Source: Escherichia phage JEP8. From it: a DNA stretch of 64,000 bases. Numbering within the stretch: position 1 is the stretch's first letter; the number at the start of each line of letters is the position of its first letter. The position numbers were made by a program, and so were the translations under genes. Of the stretch, positions 1 through 41,332 are shown in pieces. The notes under the pieces were generated by a model. It saw only the letters and a program-made list of their open reading frames with translations, made no database searches and was not told the DNA's origin. The DNA lies in sequence record MT764208.1; one strand, written 5' to 3'.

Positions 1-130
1 TATACTTTTTGTATGTACCGTGGTCGGCGTCATCCGCATTAAAGCAGACTACCTTATGACCTGCTTTAGCCCATTCTAGCCCCATTATCCCCGATCCGTC
101 AAAGTTGCAGAATATTAATTTTTGTTTCAT
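1..130 (-). CDS. hypothetical protein, partial (N-terminal 43 codons only; runs off window start)
   Basis: ATG at 128-130 overlaps the TGA of the upstream ORF (ATGA coupling); N-terminus ...NFDGSGIMG... is a glycine-rich loop; product not identifiable. Confidence 0.3.
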   Translation of the reverse strand, partial: MKQKLIFCNFDGSGIMGLEWAKAGHKVVCFNADDADHGTYKKY

Positions 131-372
131 ATACGACCCTTTAACCCAGCACAGATTTTAGTCGGTTCTTTACCGTGCCACATTAAGTAAAGTCCGTTAA
201 TGCGACCTTGTTTTGTGTGTGATTCTTTTCTGATCTTCTTATAGTGTCGTGCTTCCTCAACCGATTGTTTAGAATACCAATCATAAAGGAAGAGGCACAA
301 AGGCCAACCATTAGCGGCCTTAATGCAGTTATTAAGAAATTCCTTATTGCGTTTAATTAATTTTCTTTTCAC
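127..372 (-). CDS. hypothetical small early protein (81 aa)
   Basis: minus-strand ORF, abuts neighbouring ORFs in the same orientation. Confidence 0.45.
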   Translation of the reverse strand: MKRKLIKRNKEFLNNCIKAANGWPLCLFLYDWYSKQSVEEARHYKKIRKESHTKQGRINGLYLMWHGKEPTKICAGLKGRI

Positions 373-620
373 GCTGCCCCCATTGGTTTGATAGTAACAG
401 AATCTAAAAGACCTTTGTTAGCCAGTTCGCGGCAAGTTTTCAGATCCGCAACTTCCCAGCCAGCCGCAATCAGGTTATCAATCAGGCTGTTAGCAACTTC
501 TTCGCTCATGAAAGAGCACTGTTTGCCGATGGTGTAGCGTACACGCTGTAATTTCAGTTTACGGAAGCCTTTAACGTTCAGGTCTTTAGCGATTTTCTTT
601 GCGGTTTCGATGTTAGCCAT
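369..620 (-). CDS. hypothetical small early protein (83 aa)
   Basis: ORF preceded by conserved GGAGAATC RBS and promoter cassette at 661-689. Confidence 0.55.
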   Translation of the reverse strand: MANIETAKKIAKDLNVKGFRKLKLQRVRYTIGKQCSFMSEEVANSLIDNLIAAGWEVADLKTCRELANKGLLDSVTIKPMGAA

Positions 621-660
621 TGTTTGATTCTCCTAAGTGGTATCTCGTCTTGATGGTTGT

Positions 661-689
661 ATTGTAGGGGAGTTATCCTCCCCTGTCAA
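661..689 (-). promoter_or_regulatory. early sigma70-type promoter TTGACA-N17-TACAAT with palindromic spacer
   Basis: spacer GGGGAGGATAACTCCCC; A/T-rich tract upstream; drives 369..620. Confidence 0.6.
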
Positions 690-703
690 CACTTTTTATA
701 AAA

Positions 704-871
704 TTATTTGTTAATTTCTGGTGCGTTGCTAGGATAGTAACCTTCTTTAACTCCGAGGTATTTCGCAACCATCCCTACAATCTTCTGTGCTACTACAATG
801 TCAAATTTCAGATAATCTTCGCCGTGGGTTTCAATGATATATGCTTCACATGCTGCTTTAGTCTCGAACAT
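704..871 (-). CDS. hypothetical 55-aa protein, copy 1 of a duplicated gene (MFETKAACEAYIIETHGEDYLKFDIVVAQKIVGMVAKYLGVKEGYYPSNAPEINK)
   Basis: below the 60-aa track cutoff; hand-translated; near-identical to 3962..4129; RBS and promoter cassette upstream. Confidence 0.5.
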   Translation of the reverse strand: MFETKAACEAYIIETHGEDYLKFDIVVAQKIVGMVAKYLGVKEGYYPSNAPEINK

Positions 872-904
872 TTTGATTCTCCTATTTCGTTTCGGTATGT
901 GTGT

Positions 905-933
905 ATTATAGGGGATCTCCCGATCCCCGTCAA
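905..933 (-). promoter_or_regulatory. early promoter TTGACG-N17-TATAAT with palindromic spacer GGGATCGGGAGATCCCC
   Basis: consensus hexamers, 17-bp spacing; drives 704..871. Confidence 0.65.
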
Positions 934-947
934 CAACTTTTTTAAAA

Positions 948-1229
948 TTATTCGTGATTAGTTTCGATGTTGTGCATTTTGCACCAATTCAGCCAATCAC
1001 CCAGATCCTGATAGTTAATGCTTTTATCTGCTGCCATCGTTTTTGTCTTGATACCCATATGTGCGTTATGAGTAAGCATTTTTACAGTGAACTCAATTTT
1101 ATCGCCTTTAGCTTTAACATCAACCAGTTTGGTCCACTGGCTACCAGCGCCGCGAATGTTCATACCAACGATGTTTCCGATGTATGCTTCTTTGTTTTTC
1201 AGGATTTCGGTTGCTTTGATGAATTTCAT
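948..1229 (-). CDS. hypothetical small early protein (93 aa)
   Basis: ORF with upstream promoter cassette (1263-1291) and RBS. Confidence 0.5.
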   Translation of the reverse strand: MKFIKATEILKNKEAYIGNIVGMNIRGAGSQWTKLVDVKAKGDKIEFTVKMLTHNAHMGIKTKTMAADKSINYQDLGDWLNWCKMHNIETNHE

Positions 1230-1262
1230 TTTTGATTCTCCAGTTCGTTTCGGTATGGGTGT

Positions 1263-1291
1263 ATTATGCTATGTTCTTACTTTGGTGTCAA
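1263..1291 (-). promoter_or_regulatory. early promoter TTGACA-N17-CATAAT
   Basis: consensus -35, 17-bp spacer; drives 948..1229. Confidence 0.55.
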
Positions 1292-1299
1292 CAACTTTT

Positions 1300-1569
1300 T
1301 TAGATATTTTCAGAAATAAATTTTAAAACTTGACGTAAATGTTTCTCATCTTTGATAGTCGCCGGAAGTTCTTCTTTTACTTCCTGTGCAAGATAGATAT
1401 TTCCGTTCCAAGTGAAAGATCCGTCTTCGTTTACGCGATAGCTGAACATCCACTCGCAATCATTTTCGATTTCATATACACACAGAAGAGTGTAATCTTC
1501 AAAGCTATTGAGTTCAAGGTCGAAGCCGTGACGTTTTGCAAAGTTGGTAGTGGTTTTAGTCAGTGCCAT
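1300..1569 (-). CDS. hypothetical small early protein (89 aa)
   Basis: ORF with upstream promoter cassette (1610-1638) and RBS. Confidence 0.5.
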   Translation of the reverse strand: MALTKTTTNFAKRHGFDLELNSFEDYTLLCVYEIENDCEWMFSYRVNEDGSFTWNGNIYLAQEVKEELPATIKDEKHLRQVLKFISENI

Positions 1570-1609
1570 TGTTTGATTCTCCTAAGTGGTATCTCGTTTC
1601 GATGTGTGT

Positions 1610-1638
1610 ATTATGCTATAGGCGTGATCTGGTGTCAA
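1610..1638 (-). promoter_or_regulatory. early promoter TTGACA-N17-CATAAT
   Basis: drives 1300..1569. Confidence 0.55.
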
Positions 1639-1660
1639 TGCCTTTTTTAAAATTTTATGC

Positions 1661-1689
1661 AATAAAAAAGCCGACACTAAGGTCGGCTA
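1661..1689 (-). terminator. intrinsic terminator after 1696..2004
   Basis: hairpin AGCCGAC-N6-GTCGGCT followed by T6 on the minus strand. Confidence 0.6.
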
Positions 1690-1695
1690 ATAAAA

Positions 1696-2004
1696 TCATT
1701 TAGACAAATAATCATTCTGTGCAATCCGGTCGGCGTATGCTGGTGTTATGTCAATCGCCAGCACTTTAACGCGTGCTTTCTTGCGACCTGGGTTTTCTCG
1801 TAACCAGTGCTCATGGCCGTGAACATTTTTATACTGCGATGCTTCTTCGAAGGTACGGATCGGACCTGGGTAATCAGCGTAAAGGATCTCTAGATCTTCG
1901 GTGATGTAAAAATATACATCGTAATTGCTGTTCTCTAGCTTAAGCAGAGACTTTCGGAACATTGGGAGATTTTCGCGGGTAAATTCAAAGATATTATCTT
2001 TCAT
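1696..2004 (-). CDS. hypothetical protein, member 1 of a six-member paralog family (H-x-H-W ... V-L-A-[VI]-D-[VI] motif)
   Basis: shares ordered motifs Y-x-Y-[IV]-x-E/D, HxHW and VLA(V/I)D(V/I) with 2422, 2705, 3426, 4198, 4757; terminator hairpin downstream. Confidence 0.55.
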   Translation of the reverse strand: MKDNIFEFTRENLPMFRKSLLKLENSNYDVYFYITEDLEILYADYPGPIRTFEEASQYKNVHGHEHWLRENPGRKKARVKVLAIDITPAYADRIAQNDYLSK

Positions 2005-2052
2005 AGTATTATCCTCAATAGTTGGATGAAAAGGGGCTTAACGCCCCGTATA

Positions 2053-2340
2053 TTAAAACAGTCCTTCCTGTACACCGTAGTAGAGTTCATCGCTGATAAT
2101 TTCATTAATGCGACGGTGTGCATATTCCTGATTTGCGAAGTTGTCAGCAAGTTCTACTTTAGTTTCGCCGTCATGAGTCCATTTAGTGATAACTTTACCA
2201 TCGGCAAATTTGAAGTTGAACTCTTTAGCTACCGCATCGCGTACCAGACGTGCGAACTTGTTGTTACGGATTGCATTATCGGTTTCGTGTGCAGCGTGAG
2301 CAAATTTGTTAACTTTCAGAGTGATGGTGATGTATGCCAT
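2053..2340 (-). CDS. hypothetical small early protein (95 aa)
   Basis: ORF with promoter cassette 2387-2415 and RBS; AKEFN segment weakly shared with 5346..5657. Confidence 0.5.
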   Translation of the reverse strand: MAYITITLKVNKFAHAAHETDNAIRNNKFARLVRDAVAKEFNFKFADGKVITKWTHDGETKVELADNFANQEYAHRRINEIISDELYYGVQEGLF

Positions 2341-2386
2341 AATTTGATTCTCCTAGTTAGAAAGTGTATCTCGTTTCGATGGGTGT

Positions 2387-2415
2387 ATTATGCTATACAC
2401 CCGATCTTATGTCAA
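2387..2415 (-). promoter_or_regulatory. early promoter TTGACA-N17-CATAAT
   Basis: drives 2053..2340. Confidence 0.55.
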
Positions 2416-2421
2416 CACTTT

Positions 2422-2700
2422 TTATAAAATAATTTTTTGATATTTTTCTATGATGTTTGTGTAGGTCACATCAACCGCGAGCACCGTTGCTTCGAATCCA
2501 CCGTTTAGCCAATGGCTATGATCGTGATCGTTAAAGAAACCGAGGCCAGTGCGAAGACCTTCTTTATATTCGGCGCGTACATTCAGTTTGTCGTCGATAA
2601 ACAGATAAAACCATGAATTTTTACTAGGATTGATGATACAACCTTTCAGATTAGGGAGAATATCACGACTAAGAATAAACTTATCACCTACTTTGAACAT
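2422..2700 (-). CDS. hypothetical protein, paralog family member 2
   Basis: start trimmed to ATG at 2700 (MFKVGDKF...), preceded by GAGGA; motif HDHSHW...VLAVDV. Confidence 0.55.
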   Translation of the reverse strand: MFKVGDKFILSRDILPNLKGCIINPSKNSWFYLFIDDKLNVRAEYKEGLRTGLGFFNDHDHSHWLNGGFEATVLAVDVTYTNIIEKYQKIIL

Positions 2701-2704
2701 AATA

Positions 2705-3025
2705 TTAGTCCTCACTTATAAGGTCAAACCAATTGTTTTTCGCATAATGCTTAATGCGTGCTTGATCTGCTTCCGCTGGTGATAGATTCCATGCAACCAC
2801 TACAACTTCTGACGCATCGTCATCCGTTTTTGATACCCAATGATTGTGATTCATACAGTTATTTGCTATCGAGTGAGCAAATGATTTCATCACTGGAGAC
2901 GTATAATCATAGTAACGGATTTTCAGATTTTCATCAACATACAAGTAGATCGTATACGGCTTATATTCAGTAACCAATAACAGACAGTTACGCAATTCTG
3001 GGAAAATCTTTTTAGTTAATTTCAT
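2705..3025 (-). CDS. hypothetical protein, paralog family member 3
   Basis: motif NHNHW...VVVVAW; same length class and orientation as other members. Confidence 0.5.
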   Translation of the reverse strand: MKLTKKIFPELRNCLLLVTEYKPYTIYLYVDENLKIRYYDYTSPVMKSFAHSIANNCMNHNHWVSKTDDDASEVVVVAWNLSPAEADQARIKHYAKNNWFDLISED

Positions 3026-3239
3026 ATTCTAGTTCTCCGTAATACACAGTAATCCATTTTTCTTCATACTTTGTATCTTTCCAACACACAATCCCGTTTA
3101 CTGTGCAATCTTTGGAATTGACGAATGATTCATATTGTTCTGCATCTTCCATCATTGCATGAGCGGTCTTTTCATCGAATATATCGCAGATCGCTTTATA
3201 TGCTCGATAATCTTTAAATTTGCTCATAATTAACACCAC
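3012..3239 (-). CDS. hypothetical protein, MSKFK tandem paralog A
   Basis: N-terminus MSKFKDYRAY and central IVCWK shared with adjacent 3230..3445. Confidence 0.5.
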   Translation of the reverse strand: MVLIMSKFKDYRAYKAICDIFDEKTAHAMMEDAEQYESFVNSKDCTVNGIVCWKDTKYEEKWITVYYGELEYEIN

Positions 3240-3445
3240 TCAAGAGTTTTTGAAAACACATCTATCCATTGTTGAGTATATGCGGTTTCTTTCCATGACA
3301 CAATACCAGTCGAATAATGGTTTTTGTTTCCAGAAAAGGACGGGCATTTTGATGCATCTTCCATCATCTTTTCGGCGAACTCTGGTGCGTATACTCGCAA
3401 AATCTGTTGATATGCTTTGTATTCTTTAAATTTGCTCATAATCAT
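3230..3445 (-). CDS. hypothetical protein, MSKFK tandem paralog B
   Basis: N-terminus MSKFKEYKAY and central IVSWK; tandem to 3012..3239. Confidence 0.5.
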   Translation of the reverse strand: MIMSKFKEYKAYQQILRVYAPEFAEKMMEDASKCPSFSGNKNHYSTGIVSWKETAYTQQWIDVFSKTLEWC

Positions 3446-3704
3446 TCACTACCTTATCAGCTTCTTTTGTTGTTTTTACATCAACTGCGATAACTCGTAA
3501 AGGTTCGTCATGGTTCCACCAGTGGTCATGAATATCGGCTTGTGATTTATCACCAAAGGAATCACGAATATCATTTTTACATTTATAGCTAATGTGACCG
3601 TCATAGTCAACATAAAGGTAATTATCGAAAATCGGCGTTTTTAAGATCATACCGAAAAATCTTTCTTTGTGTGTCTTATCCAGCGTTGCAGTAATTCGCA
3701 TCAT
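3426..3704 (-). CDS. hypothetical protein, paralog family member 4
   Basis: motif HDHWW...VIAVDV. Confidence 0.55.
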   Translation of the reverse strand: MMRITATLDKTHKERFFGMILKTPIFDNYLYVDYDGHISYKCKNDIRDSFGDKSQADIHDHWWNHDEPLRVIAVDVKTTKEADKVVNDYEQI

Positions 3705-3716
3705 AATATATTCCTC

Positions 3717-3896
3717 TTAGAAAGGGATGGTCATTTCTTGAGCTTGTATGTTCTCGTTAGGATTAAACTTCATCCAACCGATATTGTCTACCAGCATATT
3801 TACATTTTTATCATATCCTACGTGAGTAGTCAACACTAAATGTGCTTTACCTTCAACGATGATTTCCATGTACTTCTGAACTTCGATAGCTTTCAT
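3717..3896 (-). CDS. hypothetical 59-aa protein
   Basis: hand-translated (MKAIEVQKYMEIIVEGK...); conserved RBS and promoter cassette 3930-3958 upstream. Confidence 0.45.
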   Translation of the reverse strand: MKAIEVQKYMEIIVEGKAHLVLTTHVGYDKNVNMLVDNIGWMKFNPNENIQAQEMTIPF

Positions 3897-3929
3897 TTTT
3901 GATTCTCCGTTTGTTGTCTTGATGGGAGT

Positions 3930-3958
3930 ATCTTACTACTCCCTTTAATCATTGTCAA
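3930..3958 (-). promoter_or_regulatory. early promoter TTGACA-N17-TAAGAT with GGGAGTAGTAAGATACTCCC hairpin
   Basis: drives 3717..3896; palindrome overlaps -10. Confidence 0.5.
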
Positions 3959-3961
3959 CTA

Positions 3962-4129
3962 TTATTTGTTAATTTCTGGTGCGTTGCTTGGATAGTAACC
4001 TTCTTTAACACCCAGATATTTTGCAACCATTCCGGTGATCTTCTGTGCTACTACGATATCGAATTTCAGGTAGTCTTCACCGTGGTTTGCTACAATGTAT
4101 GCTTCGCATTCTGCTTTAGTCGGGAACAT
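3962..4129 (-). CDS. hypothetical 55-aa protein, copy 2 of duplicated gene
   Basis: track ORF trimmed to internal ATG (MFPTKAECEAYIVANHGEDYLKFDIVVAQKITGMVAKYLGVKEGYYPSNAPEINK); about 85-90 percent nt identity to 704..871 by eye. Confidence 0.5.
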   Translation of the reverse strand: MFPTKAECEAYIVANHGEDYLKFDIVVAQKITGMVAKYLGVKEGYYPSNAPEINK

Positions 4130-4163
4130 TTTTGATTCTCCTATATCTCGTTGGTATGTGTGC

Positions 4164-4192
4164 ATTATAGGGGATCACCGATCCCCTGTCAA
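4164..4192 (-). promoter_or_regulatory. early promoter TTGACA-N17-TATAAT with palindromic spacer GGGGATCGGTGATCCCC
   Basis: drives 3962..4129. Confidence 0.65.
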
Positions 4193-4197
4193 CAACT

Positions 4198-4491
4198 TTA
4201 TAATGCTTTATATGCGTATTTCATAAATTTGTCTGCCACTTCATTGGCATGTTCAGCTTCTACGCCTGATTCGAGAACAATAGCTAGGTCGGTTTCGTCA
4301 TTCCCGCCGTACCAATGATTTGATGTTCGATTTTTTTCAATTGGAAATTGGTCACTTTTATCTGTGCGACAAAATACATCTAAATGCTCGTCGATGTAAA
4401 AGATCCAATCTTCATAAAGAATAACGGTATTAGCCAGATTTTTATTGCCTTCAACGAAAGGTTCGGCTACAAACAAATTAGTATGTTCCAT
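4198..4491 (-). CDS. hypothetical protein, paralog family member 5
   Basis: start trimmed to ATG 4491 (GAGGA upstream); motif SNHWYGG...LAIVLE. Confidence 0.5.
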   Translation of the reverse strand: MEHTNLFVAEPFVEGNKNLANTVILYEDWIFYIDEHLDVFCRTDKSDQFPIEKNRTSNHWYGGNDETDLAIVLESGVEAEHANEVADKFMKYAYKAL

Positions 4492-4507
4492 AGTAATTTC
4501 CTCAAAA

Positions 4508-4699
4508 TTATACAGCTTCGTAAACTTCCCAATGTCCAACACCAGCACGCTTAACGAAAAGGTTTTCTTTGATGTTATTCATAAACGTCTGGATGGATTT
4601 AATGCGGTTTGAAGGTTTCCATTCTTCGTTGGCATTGCGTCGATACATCATAACATTACCAGTTCGCTTATATTCAGCAACCATTTTAAGACCACACAT
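4508..4699 (-). CDS. hypothetical small protein (63 aa)
   Basis: ORF between family members; putative promoter 4751-4778 upstream. Confidence 0.4.
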   Translation of the reverse strand: MCGLKMVAEYKRTGNVMMYRRNANEEWKPSNRIKSIQTFMNNIKENLFVKRAGVGHWEVYEAV

Positions 4700-4750
4700 A
4701 ATATTATCCTCAATTTGTGGGAGAGTATTACCCCTCCCAATGATTGTTAT

Positions 4751-4778
4751 GTTATATCACACAAAATGGCGTGTCAAT
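4751..4778 (-). promoter_or_regulatory. putative early promoter TTGACA-N16-TATAAC
   Basis: weaker -10; upstream of 4508..4699. Confidence 0.35.
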
Positions 4779-5077
4779 GCTTCTTTTGCGGTTCCGCTAA
4801 GACTTTCGATCTCGCCTGGCATAACATCAACCGCCAGAACTTCTACAACATCCTCGGACCCTAACCAGTGAGTATGACCTTTGTAGAACTTGATAACCAG
4901 ACTACCTTCCTCGTCCCATTTAACGCTATCGCTAGCCCACCACACATCACCGTCGATAAAGTTGATGTAAAGCACACTACGCCACATTGAATTAATTACT
5001 TTCAATACTGCGCCTTTCATCTCTTCCACGGTATGGTCTTCCATTTTGAAGACCTCACCTACCTGAACTTTTGCCAT
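4757..5077 (-). CDS. hypothetical protein, paralog family member 6
   Basis: motif GHTHWLG...VLAVDV. Confidence 0.55.
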   Translation of the reverse strand: MAKVQVGEVFKMEDHTVEEMKGAVLKVINSMWRSVLYINFIDGDVWWASDSVKWDEEGSLVIKFYKGHTHWLGSEDVVEVLAVDVMPGEIESLSGTAKEALTRHFV

Positions 5078-5094
5078 TTAGTCACCTCTCTTTA

Positions 5095-5274
5095 TTACAT
5101 AACAATCACGCCAGCCGTTGAAAGTTGATGTTTCAACTGAGCATTTTCTGCTACCGTCAAATCAATGATTTCTTGTGACGCTGCAATCATATATCCATTG
5201 GTGATATTGTTTTGCATCAGTTCAATGGTTTCTTCGTTGTAGCGGATTTTAGCGATGATTTCGTTGAAGTTCAT
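5095..5274 (-). CDS. hypothetical 59-aa protein
   Basis: track ORF trimmed: N-terminal MLTGDHRSPIL is read-through of the promoter cassette; real start MNFNEII... after GGAGAATC. Confidence 0.45.
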   Translation of the reverse strand: MNFNEIIAKIRYNEETIELMQNNITNGYMIAASQEIIDLTVAENAQLKHQLSTAGVIVM

Positions 5275-5308
5275 GATTGATTCTCCTAGTTCGTTTCGGT
5301 ATGTGTGT

Positions 5309-5337
5309 AGTATAGGGGATCGGTGATCCCCTGTCAA
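5309..5337 (-). promoter_or_regulatory. early promoter TTGACA-N17-TATACT with palindromic spacer GGGGATCACCGATCCCC
   Basis: drives 5095..5274. Confidence 0.6.
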
Positions 5338-5345
5338 CAACTTTT

Positions 5346-5657
5346 TTAAAGTTTTTCCATGATAACGGTCATAATTACATCTTCTGCGCGAGCGGTCAGA
5401 TTATCAGCGTCAGCATGTGGGCGGTTGGTTGTTACAGAGATAACACCGTTGCGCACTGGTTTGATATTGATATCAAGATGATCCGCGAAACGTTCGCCAG
5501 TTACAGAATGAATTTTGGTGTTAAATTCTTTTGCCAGTGCCTTGCGAACTTCACGAATCAGGGTAGCGTTTTTCAGTTGGTTCTCCGCGCTCATGGTCTT
5601 CTGGGTGTTAATGGTTCCGTCGAAGTCAATCATTGGCAGCGTTACGATGTATTTCAT
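5346..5657 (-). CDS. hypothetical small early protein (103 aa)
   Basis: ORF with promoter cassette 5703-5731 and RBS. Confidence 0.5.
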   Translation of the reverse strand: MKYIVTLPMIDFDGTINTQKTMSAENQLKNATLIREVRKALAKEFNTKIHSVTGERFADHLDINIKPVRNGVISVTTNRPHADADNLTARAEDVIMTVIMEKL

Positions 5658-5702
5658 TTTTGATTCTCCGTTTAAGAAAGTGTGTTTCGTTTTGATGTGT
5701 GT

Positions 5703-5731
5703 AGTATAGGGGATACGTGATCCCCTGTCAA
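5703..5731 (-). promoter_or_regulatory. early promoter TTGACA-N17-TATACT with palindromic spacer GGGGATCACGTATCCCC
   Basis: drives 5346..5657. Confidence 0.6.
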
Positions 5732-5744
5732 CAACTTTTTTGAA

Positions 5745-6221
5745 TTATTTTTCTTGATGCTCGCGCTCGTACTTTTCGAAATAAAATTCTACTGGCTGGT
5801 CATGAATTGACAGCAAGCCAAAGCGTTTAGCCGCTCGCAATCCCATATTGCGCTGAATGTACTTCTGGAAGTTCTCGCGTATACACTTACGCCAGTATTC
5901 TAAGCCCATACAGCTTTTATAAAGATTGCATTGCACACACGCCGGATTCATGTTATCAAGTATATCATGCTCCGGTTTATGCATTCCTACGACCTTATAC
6001 TTCCACAATCCATCATCATTACGGGCAATTCGTCCATTTTCATCATAGACTACCTTTGAGCGTCGCAATACTGGTTTGATGTGGTCTGCGTGCCAGCGAT
6101 CCCCTAGTTCCTCGCCACAATAGGCACAACGTCCACCGTATTTCATTTTCAGGATCTGGCGTTGCTCTTTCTTTGACAATTTTTTAGGTTTAGGGGCTTT
6201 CGCCCCTTCATTATCACACAT
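5745..6221 (-). CDS. HNH-family endonuclease (free-standing)
   Basis: C-x2-C ... H-A-D-H-I-K-P ... C-V-Q-C-N signature; directly downstream of ligase; true start may be internal Met (MKYGGR...). Confidence 0.6.
   Translation of the reverse strand: MCDNEGAKAPKPKKLSKKEQRQILKMKYGGRCAYCGEELGDRWHADHIKPVLRRSKVVYDENGRIARNDDGLWKYKVVGMHKPEHDILDNMNPACVQCNLYKSCMGLEYWRKCIRENFQKYIQRNMGLRAAKRFGLLSIHDQPVEFYFEKYEREHQEK
6192..6207 (-). promoter_or_regulatory. RNA stem-loop GGGGCGAAAGCCCC (GAAA tetraloop) at the ligase 3' end
   Basis: same element as at 18921-18936 and 31041-31056. Confidence 0.45.
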
Positions 6222-7710
6222 CGAATACCTCTTTTACTGTATTTGCAGTGGTCTTGTCGTAGCGAATACGTTTGATGATTGGGAGAAATAAAGAGAACTC
6301 CGGTTCATCTTCTTTACGTGATTTGCTGCGAATGTACCCGTTGCATGTCATCTCAATGACTTTTCCAATCAGGTTATGACGGTCAGCCCATAACATTTCT
6401 CGGTCGAGTTCATTTCGACTATCGAACGGAATTACACGTTCGATACCATCATCACCTTTTTCGGTTGTGGTGTCGGTCAATCCCGATCCGGTGTTAGTCA
6501 TCATTCGTCCGCACGCACTACGGACAGTAAAACCGCCTACCTTATTAGGATCTTTACTATGCGGATATACATCAACAATTTCCGCGTCGAAGTCAATCAC
6601 TTCTTTAAATTTAACCTGATCTTTACTGCGACGATCTTCAAATACACCATGCAGATTTTTAAGGATAATACCTTCTAATCCCATGTTTACATAGCGATGA
6701 TATACTTCGCGAGCTTCATCGAGATTGTTAACTACGGTATTTTCGATTATCTGAACACGAGGATCGTTAAGTTCTTCAACAATCTGTTTTAGTTCTTCGA
6801 ATCGATCTTTATACTGCTTCGTTGCTTTCTCGTTACCGTAGTACACATCACGGTCGATAACATCCCAGACAGTGTAAACAATACATTGGGCTTCTTCTTT
6901 TGGAATAGTTCCTTTCAGTGATTTGTTGAGGATACCATTTCCGGTCTGACGATCTGCAACAACGGATTCTTTCACTGCTTCCGCTACTGGCGTTAATGGC
7001 ATTTCCTCTTCTTCAAATATCCATGACAGAGTACCATCATAAACGCTCTCAACGAAGTTCTGCGCTGGTGTTTGCGAAAGGGTAGGCATATATACCAATT
7101 CGCCATCTAGAACAATTCCACGGCCTCGTAGACGCTCTAAAACCGCAAACAAATCATCAAGCCCTTGATAGGTATTACCTGAGCGGGTATAGATTGCTAA
7201 TGTTTCCCCGTCAATATCAGCCATACCACGAGCGCCATCGCTTTTAAGTTGTGCATACGCCGGATACTTGATATTAGCAATAGTCTTATCAGAACATGAC
7301 GATGCAAGGTGGCACGGTTGCTGAGGGATCAGTTTCTTCCATACCTTGTTTGCAGTGGTAGCGGAACAGCCGCATTCCAGATCACGATTCAGGACCATCA
7401 TTGCAACTTTAGCATCATCCTCTGACAAGCAAGTCAGAGTATCGGTAACTAGTTGTAATGCTGCATTACCAGTTACTTGACGCGTGGCAAGTTTATTTTT
7501 AAAGACCTGTAATGCACCGGATAAAGACAATACAGACGAATAGCGAGATGGTTTATCGTATTTCTTTACGCCAAACGTAACCTGTTTGCAATATGCCAGA
7601 TAAAAGCATTCTTTCAGCGTTTCATTGCTCGCGGATTCTTTCAGAATCTTTTCTTTCAGCGATGTTTTGTCTGTTGCTGCAAGCTGATTAATGATATTAA
7701 GAATTGACAT
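6214..7710 (-). CDS. 30: ATP-dependent DNA ligase (T4 gp30 homolog)
   Basis: clear similarity along the length to T4 DNA ligase as recalled (KADGAR lysine motif, C-terminal LEGIILKN, KFKEVID); track start is GTG, trimmed to ATG 7710 preceded by GAGGTGA. Confidence 0.9.
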   Translation of the reverse strand: MSILNIINQLAATDKTSLKEKILKESASNETLKECFYLAYCKQVTFGVKKYDKPSRYSSVLSLSGALQVFKNKLATRQVTGNAALQLVTDTLTCLSEDDAKVAMMVLNRDLECGCSATTANKVWKKLIPQQPCHLASSCSDKTIANIKYPAYAQLKSDGARGMADIDGETLAIYTRSGNTYQGLDDLFAVLERLRGRGIVLDGELVYMPTLSQTPAQNFVESVYDGTLSWIFEEEEMPLTPVAEAVKESVVADRQTGNGILNKSLKGTIPKEEAQCIVYTVWDVIDRDVYYGNEKATKQYKDRFEELKQIVEELNDPRVQIIENTVVNNLDEAREVYHRYVNMGLEGIILKNLHGVFEDRRSKDQVKFKEVIDFDAEIVDVYPHSKDPNKVGGFTVRSACGRMMTNTGSGLTDTTTEKGDDGIERVIPFDSRNELDREMLWADRHNLIGKVIEMTCNGYIRSKSRKEDEPEFSLFLPIIKRIRYDKTTANTVKEVFDV

Positions 7711-8176
7711 TTTCACCTCGTTTTGTTAAACGTTCACGAATATCATTGAGGATACTACAAAATTCCGATTCAGTCAATATAGTCTTTAACGGATCAGTTC
7801 CACCTATACTATGACGCAATTTCTTATTTCCGGTAGCGAGTAATGCTTTACAAAATTCTGGGTTATTCCGTGCCATCGTAACAAATGCCAGATGTACCAG
7901 TCTGTAATAATGCTCACTCATTCGATGAATCGGGCGACCCTGAAAATATAACATGTGATTCTCTATCTTTTCGGTCCTTCCGGTTCTTTTTGCTTTGCCA
8001 CCGTGCATCAAAAAGATTTCTCTTTGTCTCTGAGGGTTCTTAAATCTTAGCCCCTGTAAAAATCCTTCTGTGCTGTTAATATCGCAACCAAATAGACGGA
8101 ATGGTCTTTTATTGAAATTACTCAATTCACCCGATGGATAAGGTCCACCCGCATAGATATCAATTTCAGAAGTCAT
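7697..8176 (-). CDS. NADAR-domain protein (YbiA-like)
   Basis: GELSNFN...F...STEGFLQGLRFK...ALLATGNKKL pattern matches YbiA/NADAR family segments. Confidence 0.6.
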   Translation of the reverse strand: MTSEIDIYAGGPYPSGELSNFNKRPFRLFGCDINSTEGFLQGLRFKNPQRQREIFLMHGGKAKRTGRTEKIENHMLYFQGRPIHRMSEHYYRLVHLAFVTMARNNPEFCKALLATGNKKLRHSIGGTDPLKTILTESEFCSILNDIRERLTKRGENVNS

Positions 8177-9076: not shown

Positions 9077-9575
9077 TATCAATACCCTTCAAATCAGTCA
9101 ATAATGCTTTTGGAATACGCGTAACCGTAATATCGGCATTATTCAGAATATCAGCCCAATCACGCCCACCATTTCGATCATATGTGTCGCAGTAATATAT
9201 GTGTTTAATACCACTGTTTGCAATTGCTTTAGCGCAATCTGGACATGGTGAAGCAGTACACCACATACTAGCGCCTTCAATCGACACACCGCTACGGGCA
9301 GCAAACAAAATAGCATTTAATTCAGCGTGGATCTCGTTTTTCTGCGACCATGCACTATGCTCTGGTCGTTTTTCTGGGATCATTTTGCCTTCATCATCCA
9401 GCCAACCGCTTTTATGTGCATGACAGCTACAGTTTTCTTGCCCTGCTGGAGTGCCGTTAAATCCAGTAGAAATGATTCGCCCGTCTTTTTCGATCAGTGC
9501 GCCTACCTTCCACGAAACACATTTAGAGTTCTTTGCGATTAGATAAGCGATCTGCATGTAAGTTTGTGACAACAT
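9060..9575 (-). CDS. cd: dCMP deaminase
   Basis: zinc-binding H-A-E-x-N-A and P-C-x2-C motifs; T4 cd position. Confidence 0.9.
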   Translation of the reverse strand: MLSQTYMQIAYLIAKNSKCVSWKVGALIEKDGRIISTGFNGTPAGQENCSCHAHKSGWLDDEGKMIPEKRPEHSAWSQKNEIHAELNAILFAARSGVSIEGASMWCTASPCPDCAKAIANSGIKHIYYCDTYDRNGGRDWADILNNADITVTRIPKALLTDLKGIDNDGTN

Positions 9576-9596
9576 AATATAATCCTCACATATTAA

Positions 9597-9800
9597 TTAA
9601 CCGTATACGCGAAAGTATTCTACTGATCCGTCGCTATACTGTTTTACATTGAATGTATTCACACCATGACCATTGCTCATAATGACATATACACTACGAC
9701 GCTCATCGCTAAACGGGTTAACTGGTGCGGGTTCAATTTCAACATTAAAACCACGTTTAGCAAGTGCTTCGCCCAATTGCTTGAGTTTATCGGTAAACAT
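9597..9800 (-). CDS. hypothetical small protein (67 aa)
   Basis: ORF between pseT and cd, same orientation. Confidence 0.45.
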   Translation of the reverse strand: MFTDKLKQLGEALAKRGFNVEIEPAPVNPFSDERRSVYVIMSNGHGVNTFNVKQYSDGSVEYFRVYG

Positions 9801-10678
9801 TAAAAGTCTCCGTAGTTAACCTGAAAACATTCTACACCAATTGCGCGGTACATGTCAACCACTTGATCACGGTCATCTACTGCCAACACAACATGATAAC
9901 GCGGTGCAATTTCAGAGAAGAAAATCTCTTTCTTCACTTCATGGTCAGGACGACGATCATTAGTTTCACGTTGAAAGTGAACACTAGGTTCAATACCCTG
10001 TTCACGCAACCATTGCAGAGTATCTTCTTCGCAAACATCCTCACGCCCTGAGCATGTAATGATACGATAGCCATTATCACGATACAGTTTAAGCATTTCG
10101 ATCACTTGCGGACGTGGTTTATCTTCTTTGACCTTTGTCCAGTCAAACGGATGACGACCGCCCTTATCCGCTAATGTCCCATCAATATCAAAGATCACTG
10201 CCTTTGGCAGCATGGTATTCGGTTTGTATACTTCTTGACCCATATATTCCTGCATCAGATAAAATTGGTTACGCAAATGAGAAAGTGGGATTGCTTTCTC
10301 TCCACGATAGAAATTACGTTTCTTTAGTGTCTCGAATGATTCATTGAACACTTGTTCAGTATACACCGCGTTAAATTCTTTTGCAAGTTCTTTGTAGAAT
10401 ACACGATGTTTTTCTTTCAGGTTAGTATCAGAGATAATGATACTTAATCCGCGTGATAGAGTCTCACGAGCAATCATTCTCTGAATAGACTCTACCAGCT
10501 TTTCTTTTTCCTTAGTATACTTGTATTTCAAATGTGAGTCAACACCAAACAACATAAGACGAAGGTCATCACGATTAACATTACGATAATTACTAAACCG
10601 TTTACATGTCTCCATAGCCCATGTAGTTTTACCGGACCCAGAACAACCAACGGTTAAAATCACTTCACATTTCGGCAT
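9800..10678 (-). CDS. pseT: polynucleotide 5'-kinase / 3'-phosphatase
   Basis: N-terminal P-loop GCSGSGKTT and C-terminal HAD motif DIDGTLAD; track start GTG trimmed to ATG 10678 (TAATG overlap with upstream gene). Confidence 0.9.
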   Translation of the reverse strand: MPKCEVILTVGCSGSGKTTWAMETCKRFSNYRNVNRDDLRLMLFGVDSHLKYKYTKEKEKLVESIQRMIARETLSRGLSIIISDTNLKEKHRVFYKELAKEFNAVYTEQVFNESFETLKKRNFYRGEKAIPLSHLRNQFYLMQEYMGQEVYKPNTMLPKAVIFDIDGTLADKGGRHPFDWTKVKEDKPRPQVIEMLKLYRDNGYRIITCSGREDVCEEDTLQWLREQGIEPSVHFQRETNDRRPDHEVKKEIFFSEIAPRYHVVLAVDDRDQVVDMYRAIGVECFQVNYGDF

Positions 10679-13111: not shown

Positions 13112-13510
13112 TTAACTTTCCAGAATATCGCGAGCTTCGTTACGCTCCTTGATGATTTTCAGGACAAATTCCAGTTTTTCTTTGTTCAGTGTTCCATTTT
13201 CCATTGCTTCTTTGACGGTAAACACTCCGCCACCTTGCCCGTATACAGTGACAGTGATTTCACCTAACATCGTAGTATGAAAACCGCCAATTTTCGGTGA
13301 TTCGAAAGAAACAATTACCTCGCGGACAGTATTACCGTCGTTGATTTCTGAGAGGGTAATGTCGTTTTTGTAGGCGGTTGCTTTAACCATACGGATCAGC
13401 ATAGTCTGATCTGGGGAGATGGTCATTTTGTCCATTGCATGTTGCAATGCAGCGTAACCGAAAACTTTAACGAAGTCCAGAACGTCTTTGCGAGTTTGAA
13501 ATTTAATCAT
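13112..13510 (-). CDS. hypothetical protein (132 aa)
   Basis: ORF followed by a terminator hairpin at 13087-13104. Confidence 0.5.
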   Translation of the reverse strand: MIKFQTRKDVLDFVKVFGYAALQHAMDKMTISPDQTMLIRMVKATAYKNDITLSEINDGNTVREVIVSFESPKIGGFHTTMLGEITVTVYGQGGGVFTVKEAMENGTLNKEKLEFVLKIIKERNEARDILES

Positions 13511-13543
13511 CTTGATACTCCTTAGTTGTTTTGGTATGGGAGT

Positions 13544-13572
13544 ATCTTACTACTCCCGTGATATGCTGTCAA
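13544..13572 (-). promoter_or_regulatory. early promoter TTGACA-N17-TAAGAT (GGGAGTAGTAAGATACTCCC type)
   Basis: upstream of 13112..13510. Confidence 0.5.
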
Positions 13573-13580
13573 CTGCTTTT

Positions 13581-13730
13581 TTATGCAACCGCAAACATCA
13601 ACATTTGAACATTCTTGGCTGTCTGGCTTTCAAAGTTCTGACATTCTTTGATAATGTCCTCTACTTTCTCGCCGGAGAACTCCGCGTAAATTTCGATTGC
13701 CATTTTCAGTACCGCGTCAAAGTTGTTCAT
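13581..13730 (-). CDS. hypothetical 49-aa protein
   Basis: hand-translated (MNNFDAVLKMAIEIYAEF...); conserved RBS and promoter cassette upstream. Confidence 0.35.
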   Translation of the reverse strand: MNNFDAVLKMAIEIYAEFSGEKVEDIIKECQNFESQTAKNVQMLMFAVA

Positions 13731-13768
13731 TTGATTCTCCTTAAAGTGTATTTCGTTTCGATGGGGGT

Positions 13769-13797
13769 ATATTACTATCCCCGTTTCATGCTGTCAA
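13769..13797 (-). promoter_or_regulatory. early promoter TTGACA-N17-TAATAT
   Basis: drives 13581..13730. Confidence 0.5.
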
Positions 13798-14016
13798 CTA
13801 CTTTTTAATGACAAGTTCGAATTTTGCTACCTTGCGTCCTCGTTTATTGAAAGCAACCCACGGACGGTTTTCAATGTAGAACAATTCTTCACCAATAATG
13901 AATATTGGCTGATTGTAAAGGCGACCCATCAGGTCACGCTGGCGAATGGTAGTAGATTCGTATACTTCGCCTACTACAAAGTGTTTGCTGATAGAGTCGG
14001 TGCAAGTAAATTTCAT
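13798..14016 (-). CDS. hypothetical small protein (72 aa)
   Basis: ORF with promoter cassette 14050-14078 and RBS. Confidence 0.5.
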   Translation of the reverse strand: MKFTCTDSISKHFVVGEVYESTTIRQRDLMGRLYNQPIFIIGEELFYIENRPWVAFNKRGRKVAKFELVIKK

Positions 14017-14049
14017 TTTGATTCTCCTTTGTTTCGTTTCGATGGGAGT

Positions 14050-14078
14050 ATCTTACTACCCCCGTTATTCAGTGTCAA
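14050..14078 (-). promoter_or_regulatory. early promoter TTGACA-N17-TAAGAT
   Basis: drives 13798..14016. Confidence 0.5.
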
Positions 14079-40836: not shown

Positions 40837-40992
40837 TTAAATTTCTTCTACAGTAAAGTCTTCAATGTTGTTGTGCTCGGCGAACGTTGCCAGACCAGCA
40901 TTCCATGCATCATCCTCAGAGAAGAATACACCGTAACGTTCATATCCTTTAGCGCCTTCAAATTTAACCATTAATTTGTGAGTATGTTTCAT
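40837..40992 (-). CDS. hypothetical 51-aa protein
   Basis: track ORF trimmed (MLTGDRRSPIL is promoter-cassette read-through); start MKHTHKLMV... Confidence 0.4.
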   Translation of the reverse strand: MKHTHKLMVKFEGAKGYERYGVFFSEDDAWNAGLATFAEHNNIEDFTVEEI

Positions 40993-41022
40993 TTTGATTC
41001 TCCTTCGTTGTCTTGATGAGTT

Positions 41023-41051
41023 TAGTATAGGGGATCGCCGATCCCCTGTCA
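41023..41051 (-). promoter_or_regulatory. early promoter TTGACA-N17-TATACT with palindromic spacer GGGGATCGGCGATCCCC
   Basis: drives 40837..40992. Confidence 0.6.
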
Positions 41052-41061
41052 ACAACTATTT

Positions 41062-41274
41062 TTAATTTTTACCCGCTCGTGCATTAATACGCATTTTCTG
41101 CATAGCCATGATCTGGCTTACTGCTTCTTCTTTACGTTTTTGCGTGATAACGTGACCAGATTCCGCAAACTCTCCCGCAACTTCTTCTACAATCTCGCGA
41201 ACTTGAGAACGTCCAAAGATGCGGTTTCCTTCGTAGCTCATAAATTCAGTCACTACTTGCTCAATAGATTTCAT
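41062..41274 (-). CDS. hypothetical 70-aa protein
   Basis: trimmed to ATG downstream of promoter 41304-41332. Confidence 0.4.
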   Translation of the reverse strand: MKSIEQVVTEFMSYEGNRIFGRSQVREIVEEVAGEFAESGHVITQKRKEEAVSQIMAMQKMRINARAGKN

Positions 41275-41303
41275 GTGATTCTCCTTTCGTTTGGTATGGG
41301 AGT

Positions 41304-41332
41304 ATAATACTACTCCCATTTCTTTACGTCAA
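41304..41332 (-). promoter_or_regulatory. early promoter TTGACG-N17-TATTAT
   Basis: drives 41062..41274. Confidence 0.5.

Follow-up and report, generated by a model that had tools for sequence, protein, structure and literature searches.

Two 55-aa early genes of Escherichia phage JEP8 (MT764208.1), here called copies A and B, most probably represent an old pair of phrog_8009 paralogs, each borne on its own promoter-early stem-loop (PeSL) cassette, which are selectively kept and still recombine with each other. PeSL cassettes have been described from the hyperplastic regions of phages RB49 and Phi1 (Arbiol, Comeau, Kutateladze, Adamia and Krisch 2010, PMC2839356; Comeau et al. 2014, PMC4122927), and the pair is an ordinary example of this system that contributes one modest new detail.

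Genomic setting of the two copies

The analysed stretch of 64 kb (the window) belongs to a Krischvirus, i.e. an RB49/Phi1-like T4-type coliphage, and is 98% identical to Krischvirus genomes across its first 8 kb. Its locus is collinear with Phi1 ORF190-213, as judged from the Phi1 and GEC-3S annotations, and lies in the hyperplastic region adjoining the DNA ligase gene, which is bounded by gene 30 (ligase) and a methyltransferase block and is rich in PHROGs of unknown function. The two ORFs proposed in an earlier note on this DNA are both real and correctly placed (Table 1; coordinates include the stop codon). They form direct repeats 3.26 kb apart, and the window contains exactly two copies of the gene. 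A 67-aa extended form of copy B starting from an ATG at 4165 was ruled out, as this ATG overlaps the -10 box, so that transcription would be expected to begin only downstream of it; it is also disfavoured by the consensus Shine-Dalgarno (SD) site standing before the ATG at 4129. No tRNA genes were found in the window, and an Rfam search of positions 1-8000 gave no RNA element match.

Table 1. Positions of the two copies, their PeSLs and the intervening genes in the window.
Feature	Position	Strand	Evidence
PeSL of the ORF190 homologue, 3' of copy A; delimits the A cassette on its 3' side	621..703	-	Fold, promoter scan, GEC-3S promoter annotation
Copy A, 55-aa early ORF, equivalent to Phi1 ORF191 / RB49p191, phrog_8009	704..871	-	ORF list, position in Phi1/GEC-3S annotation, PHROG match
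PeSL driving copy A	872..940	-	Promoter scan, hairpin fold, PeSL definition of Arbiol 2010
Intervening block of ten small early ORFs, homologues of Phi1 ORFs 193, 194 and 197-204	948..3896	-	ORF list, PHROGs, paralogy
PeSL of the ORF204 homologue, 3' of copy B; delimits the B cassette on its 3' side	3897..3961	-	Fold, promoter scan
Copy B, 55-aa early ORF, equivalent to Phi1 ORF205 / RB49p205, phrog_8009	3962..4129	-	ORF list, BLASTP, PHROG match
PeSL driving copy B	4130..4199	-	Promoter scan, hairpin fold

The block between the copies comprises four paralogs of the HxHW family and the tandem pair ORF201/202, all PHROG assignments being of unknown function. The view that the repeats bracket a paralog family applies to these four HxHW members, but two of the six lie outside. 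A segmental duplication, with the block 210-208-206-205 mirrored by 198-197-...-191, was ruled out, since divergence is much greater in the other paralog pairs: identity is 44% for ORF201/202 and 25-32% within the HxHW family, and ORF198/210 have no detectable BLASTP similarity.

Divergence, alleles and selection

The proteins of copies A and B are near-identical, as had been noted before, with 49/55 residues in common (89% aa identity; BLASTP E = 6e-37), although they differ at six positions (3, 7, 13, 14, 15 and 32) rather than about five, and the residues at position 3 are E and P instead of E and T. Near-identity is not found at the DNA level. The pairwise alignment that the earlier note had suggested as a check, on the understanding that an identity much below its estimate would speak for ancient paralogs, had essentially this outcome, with 142/168 identical nucleotides in the ORFs (84.5%, or 15.5% divergence). 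The 26 nucleotide differences are spread over 22 codons (16 with synonymous and 6 with non-synonymous changes), and synonymous divergence is near saturation (pS 0.53, dS 0.92; dN 0.064; dN/dS 0.07).

A-type and B-type alleles are distinct in every two-copy genome examined and form separate lineages in 15 genomes, copies of the same type differing between phages by 0-8 nt (0-6 nt if the converted patch of phage Brandy is left aside) as compared with 26 nt between A and B. Throughout Krischvirus, the B-type allele is conserved, and the six amino-acid differences are largely lineage-specific, not random. These comparisons indicate that A and B are old paralogs that arose before the sampled Krischvirus genomes diverged, and that both copies are kept by purifying selection. 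Both genes were found in 51 phage records deposited independently, and a protein 100% identical to that of copy A in 43 phage records. A single copy is carried by 7/58 Krischvirus records, no listed record has the gene in more than two places, and an amplified state (>2 copies) was found in none of the records listed.

PeSL cassettes

Each copy is preceded by its own PeSL, consisting of a sigma-70 consensus promoter, a G-rich/C-rich stem-loop and an SD site. In copy A, an AT-rich tract that contains the stop codon of the preceding gene (...TAATTTTAAAAAAGTTG-TTGACG) leads into the -35 hexamer TTGACG (933-928), which is followed by the -10 hexamer TATAAT (910-905), the leader, the SD site AGGAG and the ATG; the promoter scan gave a score of 11/12 with a 17-nt spacer, and this spacer holds the stem-loop GGGGATC-GGGA-GATCCCC (928-911; -14.9 kcal/mol, z = -2.6), the first G of which is common to the -35 hexamer. 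Copy B likewise has an AT-rich tract including the stop codon of the gene before it (...GCATTATAAAGTTG-TTGACA), then a perfect 12/12 sigma-70 consensus promoter (-35 TTGACA, 4192-4187; -10 TATAAT, 4169-4164) with the stem-loop GGGGATC-GGT-GATCCCC (4186-4170; -14.1 kcal/mol, z = -2.2), the leader, SD site and ATG. Besides the AT-rich tract, both copies therefore have the further features by which PeSLs are recognized: a near-consensus promoter (TTGACA, N17, TATAAT) directly upstream, a stable G-rich/loop/C-rich stem-loop within or overlapping the promoter, and an SD site with start codon at the 3' end (TAGGAGAATCAAA(A)ATG in both) in a hyperplastic region with an ORFan downstream. Recombination at PeSLs, visible as indels and replacements between closely related genomes, was found as well (see below).

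The PeSLs that bound the two cassettes on their 3' sides are similarly built. The one serving ORF190 has its -35 at 689-684, the -10 TACAAT at 666-661 and the stem-loop GGGGAG-GATAA-CTCCCC (-19.4 kcal/mol, z = -5.8); in the one serving ORF204, the -35 TTGACA (3958-3953) begins 3 nt past the stop codon of copy B and the stem-loop overlaps the -10. Nine PeSL-type promoters are located on the minus strand from 618 to 5731. The orthologous PeSL206/205 of Phi1, which corresponds to the PeSL of copy B, reached approximately 13,000 Miller units when fused to lacZ, and for the PeSL211/210 stem-loop, activity as a terminator in vivo has been published (PMC2839356).

The repeat itself extends from 703-940 versus 3961-4199 (240 nt, 85%; blastn self-comparison) and is made up of the ORF and the upstream promoter/RBS cassette, the similarity ending at the stop codon. 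The cassette part of this repeat does not single out the pair: the cassettes upstream of A and B are 69% identical over 95 nt, while the A cassette and that of the unrelated gene ORF209 are 72% identical (89% over 82 nt by blastn). Since the match to ORF209 is at least as good, the upstream similarity is not specific to A and B.

Recombination between the copies

The differences between A and B are unevenly distributed, 25/26 falling in nt 1-120 of the ORF and one in the last 48 nt (binomial P = 0.0018), and the third codon positions reflect the same bias (17/40 versus 1/15; Fisher p = 0.012). The last 48 nt look homogenised between the copies, with a small number of sites to judge from. An RNA element in this conserved 3' region was ruled out, as there is no Rfam match and the outgroups P0003 and swi2 vary there at synonymous sites. 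Short gene-conversion patches occur in Brandy, Whisky and phiS; the B copy of Brandy has six consecutive A-type synonymous sites, and the A cassette of Whisky combines a B-type leader with B-type sites at nt 116/119.

Cognac and FL04 each possess one fused copy that joins the ORF206 side of B to the ORF190 side of A, an arrangement equal to a 3,258-bp deletion with the ten-ORF block missing; a contiguous ORF206-ORF190 junction was found in these two of 58 records only. In three flanking-gene trees (ligase, ORF190 and ORF207-209), Cognac and FL04 are never sisters and are each nested among two-copy genomes. Their junctions, taken from public short-read assemblies, differ, which points to independent deletion events, and the fused copy of Cognac consists of a B-type promoter/stem-loop and an A-type ORF. 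Whisky, which comes from the same laboratory and method, keeps both copies. Both crossovers are located in the promoter cassette directly upstream of the ORF and not in the coding repeat; the paralogous coding sequence may therefore contribute little that is not already provided by any PeSL pair.

Cassettes have also been lost or rearranged elsewhere at this locus: the A cassette is missing in Brandy, JK32 and UPWr_E1, phiS is without ORF206-210 and has B fused to PeSL-210, nearby cassette-by-cassette deletions occur without the involvement of any paralogous ORF, and stem-loop and leader modules are swapped between genomes. The ongoing recombination postulated by the earlier note is thus borne out by the conversion patches and the fused copies. 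Its prediction that the 3 kb between the repeats could be deleted or amplified agrees with the deletion in Cognac and FL04, but amplification was seen in no genome.

Protein family

Both proteins match phrog_8009 over their full length (1-55 of 55; A, E = 6.8e-38; B, E = 9e-38), a very small enterobacterial-phage family of PHROGs v4 without functional annotation. The 55-aa protein had no matches in Pfam, in NCBIfam or in a profile search against the PDB. An AlphaFold2 model reached a pLDDT of 89.6, with 3/5 models below 50, and Foldseek gave no fold match for it in the PDB (best E = 4.3) and retrieved from BFVD only its own family and an uncharacterised Henu8 protein. Two word-indexed homology searches yielded nothing informative on function, nor did the 12 clusters, all stand-alone proteins of 50-75 aa, from an exhaustive HMM search of 1.84 billion representatives; an IMG/VR scan for further loci returned two. 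The family is also present in unrelated siphoviruses (Swiduovirus, Sashavirus) and in one Salmonella chromosome, and the closest known relative of each copy is the other (89% aa identity versus 83% to P0003 and ~72% to the swi2 group). With low confidence, we would guess that the protein acts in the cytoplasm in host takeover or in an accessory role and is dispensable.

Discussion

We propose that each copy acts as a separate PeSL cassette with a strong sigma-70 promoter, a spacer stem-loop, a consensus SD site and an ATG, that the stem-loop would double as an attenuator of upstream transcription, and that host RNA polymerase would transcribe each copy separately right after infection, as suggested by the sequence and the published test of the orthologous PeSL206/205. 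The most likely route of origin is that a cassette of PeSL plus ORF was copied or re-inserted at another PeSL, because the homology extends from within the PeSL to the stop codon, at which the following PeSL begins. Since then, purifying selection has preserved both copies, and the residues of helix 1 have become lineage-specific. As direct repeats in a T4-type phage, a highly recombinogenic type of virus, the copies still interact, which is shown by the short conversion patches, the homogenised 3' end and the unequal recombination by which two natural isolates independently lost the 3,258-bp interval and its ten ORFs.

Among the alternatives, a xenologous origin deserves the most attention, although we regard it as clearly less likely than an old duplication. 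Here, one copy would have come from a diverged phage, in the form of a PeSL mini-circle or cassette that was inserted at a resident PeSL, and the two would never have been one locus. The divergence between A and B far exceeds that between orthologues in the genus, mini-circles from the same region have been documented and their insertion proposed (PMC2839356), and the occurrence of the family in Swiduovirus, Sashavirus and a Salmonella chromosome suggests that it moves horizontally. However, no closer relative of either copy than the other is known, a donor lineage is not known, and the outcome would mechanistically be the same as duplication via cassette copy.

A more far-reaching idea, which we consider rather improbable, is that the pair is more than a passive relic: the two gene copies and their PeSLs would serve as handles by which the 3.26-kb ten-gene module excises as a mini-circle with one hybrid copy and re-inserts into other co-infecting Krischvirus genomes, so that it would be gained and lost as a unit, while the fixed differences in helix 1 would have led to sub-functionalisation, the A and B proteins acting on different targets in the host.

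It is very unlikely that the single-copy state of Cognac and FL04 is ancestral and that two copies arose by insertion of the 3.26-kb block. Direct-repeat recombination is reversible in principle and a Campbell-type circle insertion would create flanking repeats, but this is opposed by the nested, non-sister positions of the two genomes and by their differing junctions; moreover, the B-type promoter/stem-loop joined to an A-type ORF in Cognac requires both parents, and the A/B divergence is older than the split of the sampled genomes.

No more credit can be given to the view of the earlier note that a recent in-genome duplication was kept for gene dosage. While the protein identity, the identical SD/ATG context and the very strong promoters driving both copies are in its favour, the near-zero synonymous divergence expected of such a duplicate was not observed, and a dS of 0.92 with 16 synonymous codon changes largely refutes a recent date. 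The alleles are fixed and distinct across the genus, their residue differences are largely lineage-specific, no listed record has more than two copies, and the seven single-copy Krischvirus records represent viable phages; dosage selection is accordingly not supported. Chance similarity or a sequence or assembly artefact is practically negligible in view of the BLASTP E-value and the independent deposition of both genes.

The published RB49/Phi1 PeSLs come from the same genus and the same locus (ORF190-210) as those in the window; for this region, promoter and terminator assays, an ORF191-194 mini-circle in RB49 and inverse PCR have been reported (PMC2839356). The architecture (AT-rich tract, TTGACA, 17-nt spacer with G-rich/C-rich hairpin, TATAAT, SD, ATG) and the behaviour (loss, swap and deletion of cassettes by PeSL-PeSL recombination) are the same here, and the published crossovers, between -10 and ATG or between SD and -10, resemble that of Cognac. 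Unlike in the published cases, 168 nt of diverged coding homology adjoin the PeSLs that recombine, and the coding repeats themselves can be seen to have undergone gene conversion. The texts of PMC2839356 and PMC4122927 mention neither the paralogy of ORF191 and ORF205 nor the 3.26-kb deletion between them. Membership in phrog_8009, the profile of which both copies match end to end, is uninformative on mechanism. Comparable cases are repeat-mediated deletions in the accessory regions of T4-type phages, a possible example being the spontaneous 'ORFanage' deletion reported for a cyanophage (PMC4503421), in which a variable region likewise lost a set of small genes without known function and the phage stayed viable.

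The A/B pair reveals no new kind of element and no new function. It provides a natural example of the PeSL shuffling model, in which two independent ten-gene deletions have become fixed in public genomes and the same locus also displays single-cassette losses, promoter-module swaps and gene conversion between paralogs. The ten intervening ORFs, and either 55-aa copy singly, are dispensable for a viable phage, which is useful for engineering or minimising RB49-like therapeutic phages.

The duplicated gene and its surroundings

Over its first 8 kb, the JEP8 sequence shares 95-98% identity with RB49/Phi1-like coliphages, which are T4-type phages of the genus Krischvirus. Both copies of the 55-aa gene, A and B, lie there in a run of short, function-unknown genes on the minus strand, between gene 30 (DNA ligase) and a methyltransferase block; judged by gene order in the annotated Phi1 and GEC-3S genomes, A and B correspond to Phi1 ORF191 and ORF205 (see table). 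The near-identical gene pair described in an earlier note is real at the protein level, with 49 of 55 residues identical (BLASTP, E = 6e-37; differences at positions 3, 7, 13, 14, 15 and 32), but its DNA identity had been overstated and amounts to only 84.5% (142/168 nt). The 26 nucleotide differences result in 16 synonymous and six non-synonymous codons. In a blastn self-comparison, the repeat spans 240 nt at 85% and comprises the ORF plus approximately 70 nt 5' of it; it is the longest repeat within the first 6.3 kb. The gene is present exactly twice in the 64-kb window, with 3,258 bp from start codon to start codon.

Positions of features in JEP8 and, with the prefix L, in loci fetched from other phages and contigs
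Feature	Position	Strand	Remark
Copy A	704-871	minus	55 codons, ORF list
Copy B	3962-4129	minus	55 codons, ORF list
Repeat, A side	703-940		
Repeat, B side	3961-4199		
Codon 3 of copy B	4121-4123	minus	
Upstream in-frame ATG of copy B	within 4130-4165	minus	
H-W paralog	1696-2004	minus	
H-W paralog	2422-2700	minus	
H-W paralog	2705-3025	minus	
H-W paralog	3426-3704	minus	
H-W paralog	4198-4506	minus	
H-W paralog	4757-5077	minus	
ORF201/202 equivalents	3012-3227, 3230-3439	minus	phrog_8471
ORF198 equivalent	2053-2340	minus	phrog_7474
ORF210 equivalent	5346-5657	minus	phrog_7474
HNH endonuclease gene	5745-6221	minus	phrog_2118
DNA ligase gene 30	6214-7716		
Nine PeSL modules	between 618 and 5731	minus	
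Intrinsic terminator	1669-1688	minus	3' of ORF197 equivalent
Intrinsic terminator	2033-2047	minus	3' of ORF198 equivalent
PeSL-type promoters	13508-14078	minus	
PeSL-type promoters	40990-41332	minus	
PeSL-type promoter	40990-41052	minus	hairpin as in A and B
swi2 homologue	L015 2501-2656		
Sasha homologue	L016 1492-1680		
P0003	L017 5001-5165		7.6-kb contig
Loss of A cassette	L008/L009/L010 about 9400-10020		Brandy, JK32, UPWr_E1
Loss in MIZ4	L003 9405-10046		
Fusion in phiS	L014 2655-2911		

Codon 3 of copy B encodes proline (CCG) in JEP8 and glutamine (CAG) in all 14 other B-type alleles examined. In a mechanical ORF list, copy B is 67 aa long, because it is read from an in-frame ATG that overlaps the -10 box of its promoter. 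Apparently, some gene callers set the start of this gene wrongly, because the public cluster P0004 (MHTYQRDIGESKMFQTK...), which is also divergent at its C-terminus, was called from the upstream ATG.

Further paralogs populate the region. Six proteins of approximately 92-106 aa, four encoded between A and B and two outside, have in common an invariant H-W motif and, after it, a hydrophobic V/I-x-A-x-D stretch; they are 25-32% identical in pairwise comparisons and are spread over PHROGs 9345, 17255, 15972, 15965 and 16486, all function-unknown. The tandem ORF201/202 equivalents have 44% protein identity and retain weak nucleotide similarity (72.5% over 91 nt). The equivalents of ORF198 and ORF210, located inside and outside the A-B interval, respectively, match the same PHROG at about 1e-43 and have no homology detectable by pairwise BLASTP; they form a third paralog pair, which is much older. 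The HNH endonuclease gene, which shares 8 nt with the 3' end of the gene for DNA ligase, is a possible mobile nuclease at the edge of this hyperplastic region.

The 55-aa protein family

Both proteins align over their full length with the function-unknown family phrog_8009, and no match was found in Pfam, NCBIfam or PDB sequences. It is a very small family: searches of 5.8 billion sequences and, exhaustively, of 1.84 billion sequences yielded 17 and 12 clusters, all of them stand-alone proteins 50-75 aa long, encoded by phages of enterobacteria or on prophage-like contigs. Homologues share about 70% identity in Swiduovirus-type siphoviruses and about 40% in Sashavirus; in swi2 and Sasha, the one phage examined from each, it heads a small operon adjoining the terminase genes. 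P0003, the closest homologue outside Krischvirus (83% identical), is encoded at the end of a small-ORF run next to PHP-domain and 2-hydroxyacid-dehydrogenase genes. AlphaFold2 predicted a compact helix-helix-strand-helix-strand unit (best-model pLDDT 89.6, with only two of five models being confident) that had no significant structural neighbours; in this model, the residues that distinguish A from B are grouped on helix 1 (7 and 13-15), apart from residues 3 and 32. We can only infer that the protein is a dispensable, cytoplasmic early accessory protein.

An old paralog pair with ongoing exchange

The earlier note had taken the duplication to be recent and to imply dosage selection or ongoing recombination. 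A recent origin is contradicted by a dS of 0.92 between A and B (Nei-Gojobori; pS 0.53, dN 0.064). Moreover, the 26 diagnostic sites clearly assign every copy in the fetched Krischvirus loci to either the A or the B type, and same-type copies of different phages are 0-8 nt apart (0-6 without a converted patch in phage Brandy). Therefore, the two types separated long before the sampled genus diverged. With a dN/dS of 0.07, purifying selection acts strongly on both copies. Nothing points to dosage selection: tblastn located the gene at 121 places in 70 records, with totals consistent with 51 two-copy and seven single-copy Krischvirus records, and no listed record contained more than two copies.

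Ongoing recombination, in contrast, is supported. Of the 26 differences, 25 are located in nt 1-120, which leaves a single one for the last 48 nt (binomial P = 0.0018), and third codon positions differ at 17/40 versus 1/15 sites (Fisher p = 0.012). Given that the outgroup homologues P0003 and swi2 have free synonymous differences in the last 48 nt, this argues for a homogenised 3' end and not for nucleotide-level constraint. Brandy B carries six consecutive A-type synonymous sites, though copy A is no longer present in this phage; isolated B-type sites occur in A of phiS, JSE and ECD7, and the A cassette of Whisky combines a B-type leader with B-type nt 116/119. Promoter, stem-loop and leader modules were also swapped between cassettes across genomes.

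PeSL cassettes and natural deletions

Almost every gene of the run is preceded by the same type of module: an AT-rich tract, TTGACA, a 17-nt spacer usually with a G-rich/C-rich hairpin, a TATAAT-like -10 box, a short leader, AGGAG and ATG. A promoter scan recovered the nine modules as its eight top-scoring matches and one further match. The B promoter is a perfect 12/12 sigma-70 consensus, and the A and B hairpins have folding energies of about -14 to -15 kcal/mol. Arbiol et al. 2010 (PMC2839356) described these modules, at the same locus of RB49 and Phi1, as PeSLs (promoter-early stem-loops). There, PeSL206/205, the promoter of copy B, reached about 13,000 Miller units, a PeSL stem-loop terminated transcription as well as rrnB T1, and mini-circles, one carrying ORFs 191-194, arose by recombination between neighbouring PeSLs (PMC2839356). 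The ORF191/ORF205 paralogy is mentioned neither in that paper (PMC2839356) nor in its 2014 sequel.

The similarity previously noted in the flanks lies 5' of the ORFs and is generic to PeSLs, not specific to the pair: over 95 nt, the module of A has 69% identity with that of B but 72% with that of ORF209 (89% over 82 nt in blastn). On the 3' side, similarity does not extend past the stop codon, and each copy is followed there by a different PeSL subtype. What is repeated is therefore a single [PeSL + ORF] cassette.

PeSL hairpins are not every transcription boundary in the region, given two intrinsic terminators (GC stem, then T-run) that match those annotated in GEC-3S. PeSL-type promoters also occur elsewhere in the window, one with the GGGGATC...GATCCCC hairpin of the A and B cassettes, and a subtype with a hairpin overlapping the -10 box (GGGAGTAGTAAGATACTCCC) is also present.

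That the repeats could delete the interval between them, as had been proposed, is borne out by two sequenced phages, with crossovers in the already-known PeSL elements. Only one copy is present in each of Cognac (MZ504877) and FL04 (PP358550), with ORF206-210 on its 5' side as in B and ORF190/189.1 on its 3' side as in A; the ten ORFs between A and B are absent. A query across the fused junction was contiguous in only these two of 58 records. The two junctions are not the same: in Cognac, a B-type -35 box and stem-loop precede an A-type ORF, placing the crossover between stem-loop and codon 3, while in FL04 the A-type sequence already begins in the 3' part of the stem-loop, with the crossover in the -35 box or 5' arm of the stem. 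Cognac was assembled with SPAdes from IonTorrent reads; Whisky, assembled by the same method, retained both copies. Trees built by neighbour joining from ligase, ORF190+189.1 and ORF207-209 never placed the two phages as sisters and nested each of them among two-copy genomes. The simplest reading of these sequences is that two independent 3,258-bp deletions occurred.

Brandy, JK32 and UPWr_E1 lack the A cassette alone, MIZ4 lacks A together with ORF190 through the methyltransferase block, and phiS lacks ORF206-210, with B fused to PeSL-210, an ORF210-type PeSL with a long leader. These architectures show that PeSL-by-PeSL events need no coding repeat. The PeSL cassette system is already known, and the paralogy of A and B and the specific deletions are small additions to it.
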